This document shows, piece after piece, positions 6,011 to 16,833 of a DNA stretch of 19,187 nucleotides. Position 1 is the first letter of the stretch. The number at the start of each line of letters is the position of its first letter. Source of the DNA: a virus (Duplodnaviria; Heunggongvirae; Uroviricota; Caudoviricetes); the IMG/VR virus record IMGVR_UViG_2657244943_000004; one strand, written 5' to 3'. The notes under the pieces were generated by a model. It did no database searches. It saw nothing but the letters and a program-made list of their open reading frames with translations, and was not told where the DNA came from. The position numbers and the translations under genes are program-made.

Positions 6011-6281
6011 TCAGGAAAGCAAAAATTTTTGAAACATTACCGCGCGCACGCACTACCATGACACCAAATACCAGGTTCAGCATCACCACCAGCCAGTCTG
6101 CCGGCAACGGATGACCACAGAGATAACTTAACGGCGTTATCGCATACAACAGCATCAGACACCAGGCGCACCACGATATCAGCGGTTTGTGTCGTGACTC
6201 TTTTCTGCGGTAGAAAAAAAGCGTCAGCACGATAACCGTACATAACGCCGCATTCAGTAATCCTGGAAGATTATTTGTCAT
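6003..6281 (-). CDS. Small two-TM membrane protein in lysis cassette (holin/antiholin-like or lysis accessory)
   Basis: 92 aa from the ATG at 6281, preceded by GGAGGAGG; hydrophobic segments LLNAALCTVIVLTLFFY and LVVMLNLVFGVMVV. Overlaps the putative holin stop and the endolysin start. The ORF-track start at 6299 is a GTG. Confidence 0.55.
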   Translation of the reverse strand: MTNNLPGLLNAALCTVIVLTLFFYRRKESRHKPLISWCAWCLMLLYAITPLSYLCGHPLPADWLVVMLNLVFGVMVVRARGNVSKIFAFLSG

Positions 6282-7132: not shown

Positions 7133-7498
7133 CAACTCGCCTTTAGCCTGAGTAAATGCGTCCTCAAGGACGGCAACGAGTCGCAGTTGCGTGCCGTCCT
7201 TTACACAGCGTGTGCAGGCAATACCTTCAGAACTTTCATTATGCCGAGCTCATACAATTTCACCATTTTGTTCAACTACAACGCTCATAATTTTCTTACA
7301 CTTTTTTAATAAACCACACCAATAACAACCATCACCGATACCTTTTGTATGCTGTTATTTTGCATTACGGTGTAACGGCAAGAGCCACCTCCCCGCCCAC
7401 CAACACACCATCAGCCAGTACCGACATCAACCGCCTAGTGAAATCCACTGCCACTACCAGAAACAACAGGATGGCAGCCAGCACAAGGCCCGCACTTT

Positions 7499-7924
7499 TC
7501 ACAGATACTGCTCCAGTGGTAACTGAAGCGCCTGTGCAATTTTCTTGAGCTGCGCTTCTTCATCCGGACCAATGCCATCCTGATCAGCGATATCCAGACA
7601 GAGGCAAAGCACGTCAACCGCCTCAGTTGTCCCCGCCACATCAGCCAGCTCACGTAATGCATGCGCATTCGCACTACGCGGTGACGCTTCATAACGGGCG
7701 CGGATATTGGCGCTCATCTGGGCAATCTCACCAGAGAACGGTGCAAAAGCAGGAAGCGCAGCAATGGTTTTCTCCAGTACTGCGATTTCTTTTGCGTCGC
7801 AGGTGCCGTCGGCATATGCAATGGAATATGCGCCCCAGACGGTCGCCTCCACCGCATCACGGTTCTCCATCTTCTTCACTTCAGTGATGGCCTTGCGGGT
7901 TTTCTTTTTGAAAATACCTAACAT
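7499..7924 (-). CDS. TerB-family (tellurite-resistance TerB-like) protein
   Basis: 141 aa; N- and C-terminal acidic motifs typical of TerB (YADGTCDAKEIAVLEKTIA ... DIADQDGIGPDEEAQLKKIAQALQL). Own transcription unit, downstream of the terminator at 8059-8082. Confidence 0.7.
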   Translation of the reverse strand: MLGIFKKKTRKAITEVKKMENRDAVEATVWGAYSIAYADGTCDAKEIAVLEKTIAALPAFAPFSGEIAQMSANIRARYEASPRSANAHALRELADVAGTTEAVDVLCLCLDIADQDGIGPDEEAQLKKIAQALQLPLEQYL

Positions 7925-8058
7925 CGTGACTTTTCCTTTGCGTAGACGAGCCTGCGCCAGATGGTTACCAGCCCACAGTGAAAGTCACACTGACAATCCC
8001 GTAAGCACCTCCTGAAAGGCTCTGTGTTTTTGATGTGCGCCAGGTGTGGCTCAGATAC

Positions 8059-8082
8059 AAAAAAAGCTCGCCGTAGCGAGCT
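8059..8082 (-). terminator. Rho-independent terminator (minus strand)
   Basis: Perfect 7-bp stem agctcgc / gcgagct with 4-nt loop, followed on the minus strand by a run of 7 U (plus-strand A-run 8059-8065); 24 nt after the stop of the 8106..8384 gene. Confidence 0.65.
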
Positions 8083-8105
8083 AACAGAAAATATGAAGCA
8101 TGTTT

Positions 8106-8384
8106 TTATCCACGAAGCATGACAATGAACTCATCCATGCCTACACGGCTGGCTATCTCGTTGTATTCCTCAACAAGAGCCAGCAATTCTGAATTAGCAG
8201 CCATGAACTCATCAAAAACCTTATGGATGGCATCACTGTTTAATAAAACAATGTTCTTTCCTGAAAGGCGATCAGGGGTAGAAAATATAACTGTTAAACG
8301 ACTAAAGGCCCTGGCTCGTTCAGCATTAACATCCTCAATACGCTGCAACAAGCTGGAGCACCTGGAAATATCATCAATATTCAC
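8106..8384 (-). CDS. Hypothetical protein, 92 aa
   Basis: GTG start at 8384 preceded by AGGAG with 4-nt spacing; followed by a clean terminator. No homology recognised. Confidence 0.5.
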   Translation of the reverse strand: MNIDDISRCSSLLQRIEDVNAERARAFSRLTVIFSTPDRLSGKNIVLLNSDAIHKVFDEFMAANSELLALVEEYNEIASRVGMDEFIVMLRG

Positions 8385-8903
8385 TCTACTCCTGCCATCT
8401 GGATGATAATCATTTCACGGAGAGAAGCACTCAGAAGTACCACTGAAGTATAACTGGTGACCAGCTGCTTACACATCTGTTGCCATCCTGCTGATGATAA
8501 GTCGATATTAACCCTTCTGTCTATAAACGAAACAAAGGATAAGTTCAGGTTTTAAACACACTGCCAGGATAAAGTATTGTATACAGTATAGAAGAGCGTT
8601 ATTGAATGACATAAAAAACCAGACCTAATCCCTTATCCGGAATATATATCAAATAAACGGGGAAAATGTATTAAGATGGCGTTCCTATTCTCTCCATCCC
8701 TGATGTCCACGTAACTCGTTATAGAATCAGAACGCCATCTGAATACACACAAAAAAGCTGGCTTCACACCCTCCTGCATGTGTGAACGCAGTGCCCGACC
8801 ACGTGCTTTCGCAACCAGCGAAAATCAGTTTTAAATACCGAAAAACGATAAGAATATATCAGAACTTCCAAGCATCCTGCTTGGCTTAGATATTAATCGA
8901 AGA

Positions 8904-9989
8904 TTAGCTCCTGTTCTTATCTAATTGTGCATTTCGCAATTTATCGTTCAGCACCAATATTTCACCAACTGTTTGTTCAAAACGCCCGGACTCAAGTTCA
9001 ACCCCAATCGTGCGACGCCCCAATCCCATTGCTGCTTTTATTGTTGCCCCCGATCCCATAAAAAAATCCGCAACCACATCCCCCGGACGACTGCTGGCAG
9101 AAATTATCTGACGCAACATATCCGCCGGTTTTTCGCAGGGATGCTTACCCGGATAATACTGTACGGGCTTATGCGTCCAGACATCCGTATAAGGAACGGC
9201 GGCCGATACAGAAAAATAACGCCGCAGAGATTTGTATTCCTCAAGCAGACTGGCATATTGCCGGTTCAGTTCACTGTATGTGCTGACCAGCAGTTGGTGT
9301 GGCGTTGCCAGCTCCCCACGCTGGTGTTTTTCTTCTGCAACACGCGCGAACAGCGCCTGCAGTTTTCTGTAATCAGCTTCGTTCGGTAACTGCCACTGAC
9401 TGGTACCAAACCAGTGCGACACCATGTTTTTCTTTCCGGTGGCTTCCGCTATCTGTTTGGACGTTATTCCCAGTGATTCACGCGCATCACGAAAGTAAAA
9501 AATCAGCGGGGCCATGACGTGTTGTTTAAGCTCGCGCTCCTTTGCCGCATAGCCGGCATTTTTTGGCTGATATGGCCCCTGATAATGTTCGGCAAACAGA
9601 ATGCGCTCTGTTGCCGGGAAATACGCCCGCAGGCTTTCTTTGTTGCACCCGTTCCAGCGTCCGGACGGCTTCGCCCAGATAATGTGGTTCAGCACATTAA
9701 AGCGCTCACGCATCATGATTTCGATATCAGATGCCAGGCGATGACCACAAAACAGGTAAAGACTTCCGGCAGGCTTCAGTACCCGCCAGAACTGAGCCAG
9801 ACACTGGTCCAGCCATTTCAGGTAATCATCGTCTCCCTTCCACTGGTTATCCCAGCCCTCGGGCTTCACTTTAAAATATGGCGGGTCTGTGACTATAAGA
9901 TCGACAGAGTTTTCCGATAAGGTCTGGATAAATTCCAGGCAATCGGTGTTGATTAACTCACAACTGGATATTTTTACAGTATCAACCAT
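8904..9989 (-). CDS. DNA methyltransferase, beta-class amino-MTase (N6-adenine or N4-cytosine), probably orphan
   Basis: 361 aa; catalytic DPPY motif near the N-terminus (LIVTDPPYF) and AdoMet motif near the C-terminus (VVADFFMGSGAT), i.e. beta-class order; about 120-aa insert between them. Architecture resembles YhdJ-type MTases. No restriction endonuclease gene nearby. Confidence 0.88.
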   Translation of the reverse strand: MVDTVKISSCELINTDCLEFIQTLSENSVDLIVTDPPYFKVKPEGWDNQWKGDDDYLKWLDQCLAQFWRVLKPAGSLYLFCGHRLASDIEIMMRERFNVLNHIIWAKPSGRWNGCNKESLRAYFPATERILFAEHYQGPYQPKNAGYAAKERELKQHVMAPLIFYFRDARESLGITSKQIAEATGKKNMVSHWFGTSQWQLPNEADYRKLQALFARVAEEKHQRGELATPHQLLVSTYSELNRQYASLLEEYKSLRRYFSVSAAVPYTDVWTHKPVQYYPGKHPCEKPADMLRQIISASSRPGDVVADFFMGSGATIKAAMGLGRRTIGVELESGRFEQTVGEILVLNDKLRNAQLDKNRS

Positions 9990-10139
9990 AGATCAATAAG
10001 CACTTCTCTGATAGGCTCATACCGCTTTTGCGCAAAGCGGATGGGCCTGAGGTTTGCTTGTGACCCCGATTCATGAGCAGATGGCTGGCAGGTGCCGCTA
10101 ACACCCACCAGCCGCCCATTACCACAAAGTAAAAAGCCT

Positions 10140-10337
10140 TCACTGCGGAAGGCGTCTGTAACAACCGAACTGATAATCTGCCAGACCCGCCATAACAAGC
10201 TGGGTCAGTATTAACTGGCAGCGTTCGCGTGAAAGGTAAGTATTCTGCGCAATTTCCCCAACTGTTGCCGGTTCAGTGACGCTTAATTCATTAAACACCA
10301 CTCTGGCTGTTTCTGTCATATCCTGCTGTTTTAGCAT
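10140..10337 (-). CDS. Small putative winged-helix DNA-binding protein (65 aa)
   Basis: Product contains PATVGEIAQNTYLSRERCQLILTQLVMAGLA, which looks like an HTH/winged-helix. Purine-rich region before the ATG. Between the membrane protein and MTase genes, same strand. Confidence 0.45.
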   Translation of the reverse strand: MLKQQDMTETARVVFNELSVTEPATVGEIAQNTYLSRERCQLILTQLVMAGLADYQFGCYRRLPQ

Positions 10338-10510
10338 GTCTTTTTCTCTTTATTGGTTAACGTGACATACCAATAACTCTTGTCGAAGAAGCCAGCAAGC
10401 TGAAAGACCGGTATTAATAACCACCTGCACATTTTATGTACCGAACCATTTTTCTGGCATAAAAAACCTCTCAATGGCGGGCGGTAAAAATCTTTGTTAC
10501 TCAAGAAATT

Positions 10511-11224
10511 TTAACGCACTCTGACTGTATTAATTTCAAAATCATTAATATTTCCGCTATTAAATATAACGAATTTCTTACCCCCACTCCTGTATGATTT
10601 CGATAACACCAGACGATCATCATAACGCGCAATAATGTAATACCATACATTCTCATAGTGGATCGCCTGATATTCCCTCTTAAACTGTGGTTTGTACCAA
10701 CCGGCAATAAGAGAGAATGCCCAGAAATAAATCATAAACCCAGCCATCATGAACTCAATTCGGTGATGGCGAATAAAAGACATTTCCGAAAAACATTTGA
10801 CTGAAACAAGTCTTCTTCCAGACCTGACAAAAAGCGTGATTGTAAAGGCAGCAAGAATGCAGAAAATCAGTACATCTGGCTCAACATGCTGATGAATTAC
10901 CGAAAACTCCAGAACAGGTGGAATAAAAAGCAGCAATATCGCGAGAAAAAGCCGGATAAAACTCAAATTTTGTATATTGCGCTTTTGTTTTATGCCCAAA
11001 AAGAAAACAATACCAACTCCCCATCCAATAAGGAATATAACGATAACTGTCACAGCATAAAACAAACTTCGTGCAACATCATCGACACCAGCCCCGACAA
11101 CCCACCATGGAAAGCCATAGTAAAATGAAGTACCCCATCCATAGAAATAAGCGCTTCCCCATCCTAGACAGCCCATATAAGCAACAAAAAGTGAAGAGTT
11201 TCTGAGCAGAGCACTGTCATTCAT
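10511..11224 (-). CDS. Multi-pass membrane protein of unknown function (237 aa), AT-rich accessory gene
   Basis: Several hydrophobic segments rich in aromatic/Gly residues; C-terminal soluble tail of about 60 aa. Visibly more AT-rich than flanking phage genes. First gene after the tR'-like terminator. Confidence 0.6.
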   Translation of the reverse strand: MNDSALLRNSSLFVAYMGCLGWGSAYFYGWGTSFYYGFPWWVVGAGVDDVARSLFYAVTVIVIFLIGWGVGIVFFLGIKQKRNIQNLSFIRLFLAILLLFIPPVLEFSVIHQHVEPDVLIFCILAAFTITLFVRSGRRLVSVKCFSEMSFIRHHRIEFMMAGFMIYFWAFSLIAGWYKPQFKREYQAIHYENVWYYIIARYDDRLVLSKSYRSGGKKFVIFNSGNINDFEINTVRVR

Positions 11225-11366: not shown

Positions 11367-11392
11367 AAAAAACCCGCTCGGTCGCGGGTTTT
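11367..11392 (-). terminator. tR'-like intrinsic terminator downstream of Q
   Basis: Minus-strand RNA CCCGC-GACCGA-GCGGG followed by UUUUUU; about 90 nt downstream of the Q stop and about 45 nt downstream of the candidate promoter start. Confidence 0.6.
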
Positions 11393-11442: not shown

Positions 11443-11471
11443 AATATATGCGTTTTAATCTACTTTTGCAA
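11443..11471 (-). promoter_or_regulatory. Candidate late promoter (pR'-like), minus strand
   Basis: Minus strand TTGCAA (11471..11466), 17-nt spacer, TATATT (11448..11443), overlapping the 3' end of Q; predicted start near 11436. Sequence inference only. Confidence 0.45.
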
Positions 11472-11478
11472 TACTTTG

Positions 11479-12144
11479 CTATGAAAATGCCGCCTTTTGT
11501 TTTGAACGTGTTCTCTCCACTAACAATAAAGCTTCACTATCCAGCCGATGAAAAATGTGTTTCATTGCAACCCAGTGACCAGTAAATGTCTTGGACCAGT
11601 TTTTGGTTGTTACTCCCACCAGTAACGCCAGTTCCTGGTATTCGTAACCTTCCCCACCAAAAAGCTCAGCTTTTACCGCCTGCGCCACCAACCAGATCAA
11701 CGTCTTCAGGCGCACCAGAGTTTTTCCTGCAATTTTTCTGGTACCGGATTGAGCATTAAATTCAGTCCACGCCCACTGCGTTATCGCGATCTGATGCTCC
11801 CAGCAAATGCTACCGCTGTAACACCACAGCAGCCAGGCTTTATGATGTTCTTCAAGAGACAGAACGGCGCGTCGCCATGATGATGTCGAAAACTCAACCG
11901 GACTGACCAGGGCAATTGATGAACCTTTCGCCAGCGATTGCTTTCCCGGGATCGGTGGATTATCCAGCGTTACTATTTTTCCAGTGACCTTATCGCGGTA
12001 CCGGATTTTTTTACGTCTGTAACGCCCTGTATTGAACATGGCATTCTCCTGCCAGGCTTCAAGCTGACCTTTTGTTGCTCCACTCAAATCAGCGGTGGCG
12101 ATCGTGAGCTGCTCACGCACAAACTGTAAATACTGGTTATTCAT
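11479..12144 (-). CDS. Putative late-gene antiterminator (Q-like), 221 aa
   Basis: Called mainly by synteny: directly downstream of rusA (ATG overlaps the rusA stop as ATGA) and directly upstream of the promoter/terminator pair and lysis genes. No Cys zinc-finger as in lambda Q. The family is not confirmed. Confidence 0.55.
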   Translation of the reverse strand: MNNQYLQFVREQLTIATADLSGATKGQLEAWQENAMFNTGRYRRKKIRYRDKVTGKIVTLDNPPIPGKQSLAKGSSIALVSPVEFSTSSWRRAVLSLEEHHKAWLLWCYSGSICWEHQIAITQWAWTEFNAQSGTRKIAGKTLVRLKTLIWLVAQAVKAELFGGEGYEYQELALLVGVTTKNWSKTFTGHWVAMKHIFHRLDSEALLLVERTRSKQKAAFS

Positions 12145-12500
12145 GCGCACTCCAGTTCTGTGATTTTTATCCCCAGCCGACCACCGGGAACAACCTGACC
12201 GCGCATAATATTAACTTCATCAAACTGCTCGTCGTCGATAAGCAGTCCCGCATGTGTCAGTGCATCCAGTGGTGCTTTCAGAATATTGTCCAGGTCACGA
12301 CGGCGCTTATCCGGTGGCTCTGCAATAATTTTTATTGCCAGCCTTCCGGACAGATTTAATTTCAGCCGCTGCTGGCGAACAATAAGCGCCACATCCCGGC
12401 GATAACGCTCCCCTGCTTTTGATACAAAATATGTGCTGCCACGACGACGCCAGTAGGTATTTACCGTCGGCGGGTAAGGCAAAACAAATTCTATCCCCAT
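12141..12500 (-). CDS. rusA: Holliday-junction resolvase RusA
   Basis: 119 aa from the ATG at 12500; RRDLDN motif (PPDKRRRDLDNILKAPLDALTHAGLLIDD) and overall resemblance to E. coli RusA. Typical nin-region position. Confidence 0.9.
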   Translation of the reverse strand: MGIEFVLPYPPTVNTYWRRRGSTYFVSKAGERYRRDVALIVRQQRLKLNLSGRLAIKIIAEPPDKRRRDLDNILKAPLDALTHAGLLIDDEQFDEVNIMRGQVVPGGRLGIKITELECA

Positions 12501-14226: not shown

Positions 14227-14457
14227 TCAAGTTAAGTGTGGGTGCATTGAGGATGCCTGACTCATCAGAGGTGGCGAGGGATTTCTCCCTCGCCTGGTCT
14301 CTAACTCCTCAGGTTCGTAAGCTGTGAAGACAGCGACCTCCGTTTGGCTGGTTCGGATTCGTACCTCACAGAGATCTTTCCTCGTTACCAGTGCCGTCAC
14401 AATGACAGTTAAACAGATGACAATCAGGGCGATTAACATCGCCTTATGCTGCTTCAT
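14227..14457 (-). CDS. hok: Hok/Gef-family type I toxin gene with C-terminal read-through extension (or pseudogene)
   Basis: From the ATG at 14457: MKQHKAMLIALIVICLTVIVTALVTRKDLCEVRIRTSQTEVAVFTAYEPEE, a near match to chromosomal Hok/Gef toxins (about 50 aa). The codon at 14302-14304, where the stop is expected, is TTA, so the frame continues 26 codons to TGA at 14227-14229. Which hok paralogue this is remains uncertain. Confidence 0.85.
   Translation of the reverse strand: MKQHKAMLIALIVICLTVIVTALVTRKDLCEVRIRTSQTEVAVFTAYEPEELETRRGRNPSPPLMSQASSMHPHLT
14273..14294 (-). other. Perfect 9-bp hairpin in the hok 3' region
   Basis: ggcgaggga-tttc-tccctcgcc; position corresponds to the 3' stem-loop of hok-family mRNAs. 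It lies inside the extended reading frame. Confidence 0.6.
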
Positions 14458-15084
14458 AGCCTGCTTCTCCTTGCCTTTCGGCACGTAAGAGGCTAACCTA
14501 CGTGTGCAAGTCATAGATATGGCCTCAGATTAATGTTAGGCGTCTTGCAGGACGCGTAATGTTAACTGGGGCTTTTCTCTATCTGCCGTTGGTATTCATG
14601 CCTGAGACAGATAGCCTCAAGCACCCGCAGCAATCCTACTTAACTCCCGTCACCTCGCCAATATAAAATCAATCAGAAAGGCGATCCATAAGAACAACAG
14701 CAAGACAATAAATTGCCATTACAGCCGCAATAGCGAGCGCACATTTGAGAACCAGCACGACAACCTCCTGTATTGGACGTACACCAGTCCTGATAAATAT
14801 GAGGCTGTCTCATCATTGATTCAATAAAACTATTGGGAATAGTTTCTGTGATTTTGTTCTGTAGAAATGGAACACAACAACCAGTCACCACCAGCACTTC
14901 TTTAAAAACGCCAAGTCCGACGCAAGCTAACCTTCTAGTCCGCTTTGAACGATGAGCGGAAATTGACATATCTGTTAAAGTGAATGGTTCGTTTTGCAGG
15001 GATACTTACACTGCCCCCTGTCAAAATGATATACCGAAGAATAAGAGTTCTTCTTCAAGAACAACAAAAAGAGATCATTCCAGC

Positions 15085-15482: not shown

Positions 15483-16181
15483 ATGAAAAAAGAACTTGAA
15501 ACCATACTGCCTGAGTTTGGTGAGGCAATTCGCCCTTACGTTTATAGTTACGTAACAGCAAACAAAAATGCCAATGCCAAGCACGTCCTGTTTATGGCTG
15601 GTTCGCCTGCTGCAGGTAAAACCGAGCTCTTAAATCGTCTTTTAGAACAACATGGCATCACAAACATTGTTCGAATTGATGCTGATGATTTTCGCTGGTG
15701 GTTCCCCTACTACAATGAAGAGAACTCTGTGGACTATCAGAGACCTGCCTCCAGAATGGTCGATTTTATCTACAAAAAAGCGCTATCTGAAGGCTATCCC
15801 ATTGTTATGGACTCTACTTTCTCCAGTATAGGTATTGCGGAGAGAAACTTTGATCTGGCCCTGAAGGCTGGTTATCAGGTAGCACTGAATTACGTCTATT
15901 TTGATCCGGCTTACGCGTGGGTTTTTGCCCAAGCCCGCTCTCGTAAGGTTCCGTTAGAGGTTCTTAAAGCGAACTTTTTCAAGAGCAGAGAGACCATTGA
16001 ACATATGCTCGCGAAATATGCAGGCCTATTTACACTCAATGTTTATCATCGACGGGAAGATCCTGAAAATGATGGTCAGTTCGTGGTCGACTATACTCCT
16101 AACGTGACCCTTGAAAACTGGACTACCTCCCATAGCTGCCCATATTCAGACGTTAGCGATCTAGCGCATTTAGGTGTATAA
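15483..16181 (+). CDS. Zeta-toxin-like P-loop kinase (AAA-like NTP-binding domain)
   Basis: Walker A GSPAAGKTE at residues 40-48, followed by VRIDADDFRWWFP, resembling the catalytic Asp region of zeta/PezT-type kinases; 232 aa. Family assignment from motifs only. Confidence 0.7.
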   Translation: MKKELETILPEFGEAIRPYVYSYVTANKNANAKHVLFMAGSPAAGKTELLNRLLEQHGITNIVRIDADDFRWWFPYYNEENSVDYQRPASRMVDFIYKKALSEGYPIVMDSTFSSIGIAERNFDLALKAGYQVALNYVYFDPAYAWVFAQARSRKVPLEVLKANFFKSRETIEHMLAKYAGLFTLNVYHRREDPENDGQFVVDYTPNVTLENWTTSHSCPYSDVSDLAHLGV

Positions 16182-16200
16182 TAAGTGTCCTATCTAAGGA

Positions 16201-16833
16201 GTGTATATGTCTGTTAAAACTGAAGCCATTAAACCAGTTGCTGAAATTTCGTTGTTCGATGCATTCGGACCTAACGTGAGCGAGCGGGTACAAGCCATCA
16301 ACCGGAAGGCCGCTGAGCTTTCTATGGCTGATATGGCTCAGGTAATGGACGTGACATTATCGTCTAGGAAGAAACTGGAAGTAACTGCTGAGAGCAAATA
16401 TATTCTCGATTTTCCTCAATGGCTAGAAGTCAATGCACGGAAACCTGGAGTTTCTTTTGACATGAAAGCATACACTTCTGTTGAAGTTAAAAAGATGCAT
16501 GTTCCTGACTTTCGCCAGTTCCTTCCTGTAGGTGCAAATATGTTGCATACCTATTCACCAATCGGTAAAACGGGCCTGCAAGGAATTCATGATTATTTAA
16601 TCGGTGCTGTTTCATCTAAACTTCATCACTTGCAAGGTGTCGGAGTTGATGAGGGCACGTTTAAAATACTTATCCGCTATGAAGATGCTAAAACGGGTGC
16701 TCCCCGCAATGATATAGTTGAAGCTGAGTCGACAATTAGCCCAAGTTCTTTCACTAGGCTCAAGCCCCGTGTGAAAAAACTTCGCAGAAAAGGTCATGAA
16801 ATGGCGATGCATGCACTAATTGCCAAAAAATAG
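16201..16833 (+). CDS. Hypothetical protein (210 aa), translationally coupled partner of the zeta-like kinase
   Basis: Starts 20 nt after the kinase stop with a strong SD (AAGGAG); followed by a terminator. No motif recognised; basic C-terminal tail (KPRVKKLRRKGH). Confidence 0.6.
   Translation: MYMSVKTEAIKPVAEISLFDAFGPNVSERVQAINRKAAELSMADMAQVMDVTLSSRKKLEVTAESKYILDFPQWLEVNARKPGVSFDMKAYTSVEVKKMHVPDFRQFLPVGANMLHTYSPIGKTGLQGIHDYLIGAVSSKLHHLQGVGVDEGTFKILIRYEDAKTGAPRNDIVEAESTISPSSFTRLKPRVKKLRRKGHEMAMHALIAKK

Follow-up and report, generated by a model that had tools for sequence, protein, structure and literature searches.

M.EcoGII, a 349-amino-acid (aa) beta-class prophage enzyme of Escherichia coli O104:H4 C227-11, methylates adenine whatever the surrounding sequence, works when cloned by itself, is unexpressed in its native lysogen, and slows growth when it is expressed (Murray et al., PMC5778455). 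Like Mom of phage Mu it is both silent in lysogens and toxic (2025 review; Murray et al., PMC5778455), and it is reported to be non-site-specific, as are M.EcoGI, the reconstructed ancestor Anc291, and SUPREM (Anc284). This founding family member is sold as a reagent for footprinting chromatin and RNA. Here we describe a homologue encoded on the minus strand of the viral record IMGVR_UViG_2657244943_000004 (19,187 nucleotides [nt], Caudoviricetes; this whole stretch is called the window), whose sequence is matched at 100% identity by a lambdoid prophage on the E. coli ARS-C301 chromosome. Judged by its sequence, the methylase is a new allele of this already well-characterized family and by itself adds little; the RNA leader that precedes it is a conserved, methylase-specific structure. 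We consider it probable that the gene encodes an intact, orphan, non-specific methylase of the M.EcoGII family in a lambdoid late operon, one that would be silent in the lysogen and would hypermethylate phage DNA after induction, as a protection against restriction.

The methylase and its family

By motif content and profile match, the open reading frame (ORF) is a full-length frame for a beta-class N6-adenine DNA methyltransferase. Pfam N6_N4_Mtase (PF01555) matches residues 29 to 340 (E = 7e-43, 147.5 bits, cut-off 26.7), and the motif order is that of the beta class, with DPPY (motif IV) in the N-terminal part, the target-recognition region in the center, and FxGxG (motif I; FFMGSG, residues 309 to 314) in the C-terminal part. 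All catalytic and S-adenosylmethionine (AdoMet)-binding motif residues are intact and are invariant among 30 relatives. An earlier sequence-only reading had delimited this ORF exactly, naming no strand (it is the minus strand), and had assigned it to the beta-class amino-methyltransferases from DPPY and FFMGSGAT, and the profile match and motif positions bear out both points. Our structure model, built from a 30-sequence alignment of close relatives, has a mean pLDDT (predicted local distance difference test) score of 67.5, which is only moderate because the alignment is shallow; it recovers the beta-class core and is too weak for the packing of the recognition domain. Its top Foldseek matches are CcrM, M.BceJIV, MboIIA, and RsrI (E = 2e-9 to 1e-6), pointing to a Rossmann-type core. 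These enzymes (CcrM, M.BceJIV, M.RsrI, and M1.MboII) share the Rossmann core and motif order with the window methylase (Foldseek E of about 1e-9, sequence E of 1e-15 to 1e-23) but are less than 22% identical to it and site-specific, and their recognition regions are different and mostly shorter.

The sequence-only reading had also singled out a large internal insert as a possible target-recognition domain. Measured against generic models, the central segment is indeed long: the PF01555 match covers a 221-position profile and leaves about 90 middle residues extra, and M.BceJIV, RsrI, CcrM, and MboIIA align only at about residues 8 to 114 and 281 to 340, with about 167 residues between the two blocks in the window methylase versus about 74 in M.BceJIV. 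This length is nevertheless no anomaly, because the target-recognition region of beta-class enzymes always sits there. A published AlphaFold model of M.EcoGII comprises a Rossmann core (residues 1 to 134 and 260 to 349), a helix-turn-helix four-helix-bundle recognition domain (residues 160 to 237), and charged, partly helical linkers (PMC11551740). In M.EcoGII, this central region gives non-specific nucleic-acid binding. Since gaps fall only beyond residue 270, the corresponding region of the window methylase aligns to M.EcoGII without gaps. Residues 146 to 255, which hold the recognition region with its linkers, are 79% identical, and our model places helices here at 146 to 173, 177 to 184, 190 to 194, 204 to 223, and 231 to 255 (pLDDT 66 to 85 across the stretch), which agrees with the published model; the peptide quoted in the earlier reading (KQIAEATG...EEKH) corresponds to residues 178 to 222 (nt 9458 to 9324). 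The segment is an ordinary, already described recognition region of the M.EcoGII family and not an added domain, so that the recognition half of the suggestion stands and the notion of an unusual insert gives way to a standard family feature.

The window methylase is 85.2% identical to M.EcoGII (294 of 345 positions, residues 1 to 344), a figure that may be slightly too low, as the M.EcoGII sequence was machine-read, with a few reading errors, from a supplementary PDF of the SUPREM paper (PMC11551740). With Anc291 the window methylase shares 85.8% identity and with SUPREM 69%; M.EcoGII and Anc291 share 83% with each other, and the nearest site-specific relative, M.PflMI, is only 27% identical to M.EcoGII. 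Homologues are plentiful in Enterobacteriaceae prophages (3,023 proteins at E ≤ 0.001), and the best 120 are 75 to 91% identical and mostly 348 to 352 aa long. The window enzyme resembles M.EcoGII and M.EcoGI in beta-class motif order, length class, prophage location, and the lack of an endonuclease partner; it differs from M.EcoGII in length (361 versus 349 aa), in an unrelated 17-residue C-terminal tail, and in the substitutions S315A and H232Q. Because it lies about as near to M.EcoGII and Anc291 as those two lie to each other, and far from M.PflMI, homology leads one to expect an enzyme without sequence specificity, predicted to modify adenines in practically every context, and a REBASE-type homology prediction would yield "A."

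We think it unlikely that the enzyme is instead a sequence-specific orphan methyltransferase, whose central domain would read a defined site and which would protect against one restriction system or mark sites. Such an assignment would suit the site specificity of most beta-class Type II methyltransferases, the predicted similarity of the M.PflMI recognition-domain fold, and the 21% of positions at which residues 146 to 255 differ from M.EcoGII. M.PflMI, however, besides its distance from M.EcoGII, lacks the charged linker, which the window protein keeps along with 85% identity; the roughly equal spacing among the window protein and two enzymes reported non-specific also speaks against a defined site, and database sequences annotated as site-specific methyltransferases bear automatic names only. 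RNA or single-stranded DNA as the physiological substrate, with DNA protection secondary, strikes us as very improbable. M.EcoGII does methylate adenine (rA) in RNA and in DNA:RNA hybrids in vitro, but its initial rate on RNA is about 100-fold below that on DNA (0.12 versus 11.1, published table, PMC11551740), and the window protein has Q179 like M.EcoGII, a position at which the published E179Q change lowered RNA methylation by SUPREM (PMC11551740).

Among the neighbors of the methylase, no restriction endonuclease was matched in Pfam, NCBIfam, PHROGs, or PADLOC, and the RefSeq annotation of the whole prophage contains none. On either side of it, ORFs encode a helix-turn-helix-like protein of 65 aa, a membrane protein of 237 aa, a PHROG 2873 protein of 92 aa, and a TerB protein. 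The lack of an endonuclease partner had been noted from sequence, and the accompanying suggestion of an anti-restriction function agrees with the role that the literature proposes for the M.EcoGII family. Within the protein itself, near-invariant family positions are altered by S315A (beside motif I), H232Q, and A327T and, less notably, by A15T and P25S; the family alignment is variable after E343, and the tail of the window protein differs there.

A conserved leader RNA upstream of the methylase

The spacer of about 150 nt between the small upstream ORF and the methylase is conserved at the nucleotide level, also in loci without the small ORF. RNAalifold on 49 distinct sequences yields a three-way junction in which 11 of 18 pairs carry compensatory changes, and a fuller leader structure on the MAFFT alignment has 93% of its cells paired. 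In that alignment 14 pairs changed on both sides, versus 4.1 ± 1.3 in shuffles (0 of 500 reach this count) and 2 to 6 with slid partners. Covariation is found at 9 of the 12 pairs of helix P2, and one P3 pair, which is unpaired in no sequence, is C-G in 23, A-U in 10, U-A in 10, and U-G in 5. Many G:U pairs assign the structure to the sense strand of the methylase, and the leader of the window folds with z = -4.5.

A covariance model built on 97 distinct sequences matches the window at 9984 to 10130 with 143 bits. Searched against the window and 80 genome loci (81 sources, 818 kb), it finds exactly one significant match in each of 50 sources, in every case directly adjoining the methylase start; the other matches are two of chance level on the reverse strand (E of at least 0.1). 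Double changes affect 17 of the 29 pairs in the covariance-model alignment (4.9 ± 1.4 in shuffles), a count that leans towards structure because the alignment was fitted to the model. In viral contigs, an 18-base core pattern occurs at 120 places, with a methylase start 52 to 53 nt downstream in 117 of them; two of the remainder lie at contig ends and one carries a deletion. The leader is, on these data, a conserved and methylase-specific RNA structure. The deletion (viral contig L102, 2096 to 2458) is internal and joins the leader to the methylase C terminus (the last ~80 codons), leaving the sole copy that lacks an intact methylase start. The more distant Xenorhabdus and Photorhabdus loci (L053 to L084), with methylases 64 to 68% identical, still have the small ORF and a P2-like hairpin; beyond that hairpin their leader differs and is shorter, and the covariance model misses this variant.

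No Rfam 15 family matches the leader at gathering thresholds, and searching to an E value of 10 gave chance-level matches only (E of at least 0.5) in 9900 to 10500. ARAGORN finds no tRNA in the leader, and full-text literature searches by topic and by sequence strings found no description of it. The leader appears to be undescribed, possibly a novel cis-regulatory RNA.

Reading of the sequence gave no Shine-Dalgarno sequence within -5 to -12 of the methylase start, and an in-frame UGA lies two codons upstream of that start. The loop-to-start pairing of GGUCA with UGAUC has 97% of cells paired and no compensatory change, which leaves it unproven. We infer that the leader restrains translation of, or read-through into, a toxic methylase, and an extra layer of control through this RNA is likely. 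With rather more doubt than conviction, we also put forward a fuller proposal, that the leader represents an undescribed class of cis-regulatory RNA for M.EcoGII-type methylases: its invariant P3 loop (GGUCACAAGC) would pair with UGAUC and gate translation until late lytic growth, and it may respond to S-adenosylmethionine or S-adenosylhomocysteine, to the methylase, or to the 65-aa protein, in the manner of com/mom.

Several other readings of the leader were rejected. Single-nucleotide indels between relatives and the strand-specific G:U pairs rule against a coding sequence, and a 12-codon mini-ORF (MSLSEKCLLIYG) overlapping the methylase start has a start codon that is not conserved in two alignments. 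Two alternative helices would compete with P3: pairing of GCUCAU with GUGAGC shows no double changes, and AAGCG with CGCUU is unpaired in 18 of the 47 sequences with letters at its sole variable position. A hammerhead or other junction ribozyme does not fit junctions of 0 to 5 nt without hammerhead core motifs and without an Rfam match. Nor is the leader an RNA of the StxS or lambda 6S type, made between pR' and tR': it lies about 1.3 kb downstream of the pR'/tR' candidates and travels with the methylase rather than with Q, and StxS is tied to a short 144-aa Q allele, unlike the one here. Separately, the 5' strand of P2 coincides with a minus-strand Chi octamer (10105 to 10112), which may add to the sequence conservation of P2 in enterobacteria.

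The late operon and the small upstream gene

The minus strand is the late direction of the phage, with genes in the order DUF968, RusA, Q, 237-aa membrane protein, 65-aa ORF, methylase, 92-aa ORF, TerB, DUF3927, holins, endolysin, and terminase. The sigma-70-like promoter just after Q and the intrinsic terminator about 50 nt beyond it are, by lambdoid analogy, candidates for pR' and tR'. Directly 5' of the leader is a further terminator-like hairpin, P0. At the P0 site, 48 of 49 loci have a hairpin of 5 bp or more in an uncontrolled scan, and in about 30 its sequence clearly marks it as P0; only 19 of the 49 have a T-run of 5 or more behind it, which in E. coli is U5.

These elements suggest a sequence of events in which, in the lysogen, transcription from the pR'-like promoter would halt at tR', any transcription coming in through the cargo gene or through the small ORF would halt at P0, and the leader would hold the Shine-Dalgarno-less start codon of the methylase inaccessible or unused. 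Standing behind Q, the terminators, and a structured leader, the methylase should be silent in the lysogen. Upon induction, Q-modified polymerase would read through, the methylase would be made late, and adenines would be methylated across the replicating phage DNA. Adenine-sensitive restriction of Types I, II, and III would then spare the progeny phage, which would in exchange be sensitive to N6-methyladenine-dependent enzymes. All steps beyond an M.EcoGII homologue in a late operon are ones that we infer.

Some points weigh against this account. The pR' and tR' candidates come from consensus matching and folding rather than from mapped RNA ends. The window methylase differs from M.EcoGII at about 15% of positions (21% across residues 146 to 255) and departs from the family by S315A, H232Q, A327T, and its C-terminal tail, and the structure model is only moderate (pLDDT 67.5). 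The anti-restriction role of the M.EcoGII family is itself a proposal in the literature (PMC5778455).

Two other fates for the gene can be set against late anti-restriction methylation. One is that it serves as an epigenetic regulator active in the lysogen, controlling gene expression or the lysis-lysogeny switch as Dam or CcrM would; orphan methyltransferases of that kind do act so, and CcrM is the best structural match to the core fold. Regulation in the lysogen is nevertheless highly unlikely: the gene is downstream of Q, with a strong terminator, another terminator-like hairpin, and a structured leader that has no Shine-Dalgarno sequence in between, and family members show no detectable methylation in native lysogens and slow growth on expression. 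The other is that the gene is a decaying, inactive prophage remnant, in function a pseudogene. Its recombinant 3' end, its three substituted near-invariant positions, and the existence elsewhere of deletion derivatives such as that on L102 would be in keeping with decay. The frame is full length with all motif residues intact, however, the leader and the gene are conserved together, and RefSeq annotates the prophage with integrase, repressor, replication, Q, lysis, and head genes; we give decay almost no credence.

The late-operon methylase has a parallel in phage Mu, where mom is preceded by a small ORF (com) and by mRNA structure at the translation start. There too a DNA-modification gene is toxic and kept silent in lysogens, and the cassette in the window is analogous in its small ORF, structured leader, and start codon lacking a Shine-Dalgarno sequence. 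The two are unrelated in sequence, however, and the 65-aa protein, with only two invariant cysteines, resembles a three-helix or winged-helix protein rather than the zinc-finger Com; also unlike com-mom, about 25% of genome loci keep the leader without the small gene. Leader RNA, P0 hairpin, and small protein together make a concrete, testable regulatory module.

The gene that the sequence-only reading had pointed to beside the methylase, as a small winged-helix gene that might act as a controller, is a real and frequent neighbor. Of 79 genome loci, drawn from many genera, 58 (~73%) have it some 150 nt upstream of the methylase, and it is present in 103 of 110 viral contigs (~94%). Conservation is at the protein level, with about 334 detectable relatives, and the ORF co-diverges with the methylase, to 37 to 39% identity in Rosenbergiella and 39 to 41% in Xenorhabdus and Photorhabdus, where the methylase is 65 to 69% identical. 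A match to the TrmB winged-helix Pfam family is sub-threshold (E = 0.0026, 18 bits, cut-off 25.6). The model of the protein has three helices at low confidence (pLDDT 65), and the only invariant cysteines are two; Foldseek returned no match below E = 3, a search made uninformative by that pLDDT. A profile search against the Protein Data Bank (PDB) gave nothing relevant and no C protein, and Pfam gave no HTH_3/Xre match. The C proteins of Type II restriction-modification systems are likewise small DNA-binding-like proteins encoded just upstream of a modification gene, but the 65-aa ORF differs from them in having no HTH_3/Xre match, no match to solved C proteins, and no endonuclease gene to time. 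The 65-aa protein is not a classical controller protein, about a quarter of genome loci do without it, and M.EcoGII needs no such partner when cloned; a controller role for it is speculative.

The cassette of small ORF, leader, and methylase (8904 to 10340) is found at ≥80% coverage in 1,877 of 5,426 complete E. coli genomes (~35%), at up to seven places per genome. The nucleotide block common with Shiga toxin (Stx) phages is 8977 to 10468 of the window, comprising the small ORF, the spacer, and the methylase, at 83 to 91% identity. Phages phiP27 (L24), Stx2a_WGPS2 (gp29), and 1720a-02 carry the same cassette of 65-aa ORF, leader, and methylase downstream of Q in the late operon; 1720a-02, named as the carrier of a close M.EcoGII homologue (PMC5778455), matches the window methylase gene at 83% nucleotide identity. 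The slot between Q and the cassette varies: phiP27 has a GIY-YIG nuclease there, Stx2a_WGPS2 has two opposite-strand ORFs, and the window has the membrane protein. In Stx phages the cassette is followed by the ileZ, argN, and argO tRNA genes and by stx2AB, whereas the window has no tRNA or toxin genes, and the 3' end of its methylase and the 520 bp downstream are unrelated to Stx phages. The cassette fills the Q-to-stx interval in many Stx2 phages, and its position between Q and stx2 puts any control of read-through or translation there on the path to toxin expression. In 8385 to 8977 of the window, similarity to Stx-phage methylase genes ends within the last ~24 codons and the 520 bp downstream are gene-poor; almost no relatives of the region 8050 to 8990 were found among sequenced phages.

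Feature coordinates and neighboring elements

Positions of the methylase cassette, its predicted control elements, and adjoining late genes in the window
Feature	Position	Strand	Basis or remark
Antiterminator Q	11479..12150	minus	PF06323 E = 2e-89, PHROG 304, RefSeq
Sigma-70-like promoter TTGCAA-17-TATATT just after Q; candidate late promoter pR'	11443..11471	minus	Consensus scan 9/12; position by lambdoid analogy
Intrinsic terminator AAAACCCGC-GACCGA-GCGGGUUUUUU; candidate tR'	11367..11392	minus	Fold
Multi-pass membrane protein, 237 aa, PHROG 1521, G+C fraction 0.36-0.41	10511..11224	minus	Variable cargo between tR' and methylase cassette, outside conserved cassette
Small conserved ORF, 65 aa, PHROG 331; NCBI name TrmB-family or DprA-like winged-helix	10140..10337	minus	Frequent upstream partner of methylase
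P0 hairpin GCCUUC-CGCAGU-GAAGGC then UUUUU, terminator-like	10136..10153	minus	Terminator scan; overlaps small-ORF stop codon, directly 5' of leader
Structured 5' leader of methylase mRNA, ~125 nt	9990..10130	minus	Alignments, RNAalifold, covariation, covariance model, fold z
Leader P1, UGGGC with GCCCA	10118-10114 with 10046-10042	minus	RNAalifold/covariation
Leader P2, 12-bp hairpin	10113-10102 with 10094-10083	minus	Holds Chi octamer 10112-10105
Leader P3, UUNGCU with AGCN'AA	10081-10076 with 10058-10053	minus	Covariation
Leader P4, GCUUU with AAAGC	10040-10034 with 10028-10022	minus	Hairpin
Leader loop GGUCA, complementary to UGAUC at -7 to -3 of AUG	10065-10061 with 9995-9991	minus	Complementarity
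Methyltransferase coding sequence, 361 aa, WP_047671474.1 in E. coli ARS-C301	8904..9989	minus	ORF, PF01555, M.EcoGII identity, RefSeq
Catalytic motif IV DPPY, residues 35-38	9876..9887	minus	Invariant in 30 family members
Target-recognition domain (the earlier "insert"), predicted helix-turn-helix four-helix bundle; flanking linker helices at residues ~135-159 and ~238-259	9279..9512	minus	Published M.EcoGII AlphaFold description
AdoMet-binding motif I FFMGSGAT, residues 309-316	9042..9065	minus	A315 in place of near-invariant family S
Divergent methylase 3' end, last ~24 codons, mosaic junction	8904..8977	minus	megablast matches start at query base 74

Downstream of the methylase, an intrinsic terminator (8082 to 8065) follows the 92-aa ORF, and the minus strand at 7345 to 7924, between the methylase and the lysis genes, encodes a protein of 141 aa with a TerB domain together with a small DUF3927 protein. 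A hok/sok-type toxin-antitoxin remnant occupies 14227 to 14626, with a sok antisense RNA on the minus strand (14452 to 14626, 108 bits) and a hokD that RefSeq annotates as an incomplete pseudogene. The plus strand at 15483 to 16833, opposite to the phage genes, encodes a 232-aa member of the zeta-toxin family and a hypothetical protein of 210 aa, neither of which matches a PADLOC defense model. Finally, the 19 kb hold eight Chi octamers (GCTGGTGG), at 6086, 6342, 10105, 12872, 12924, 14888, 15198, and 15694, four on each strand; shuffled sequence would be expected to hold about 0.5, and none of 200 shuffles has as many as eight.

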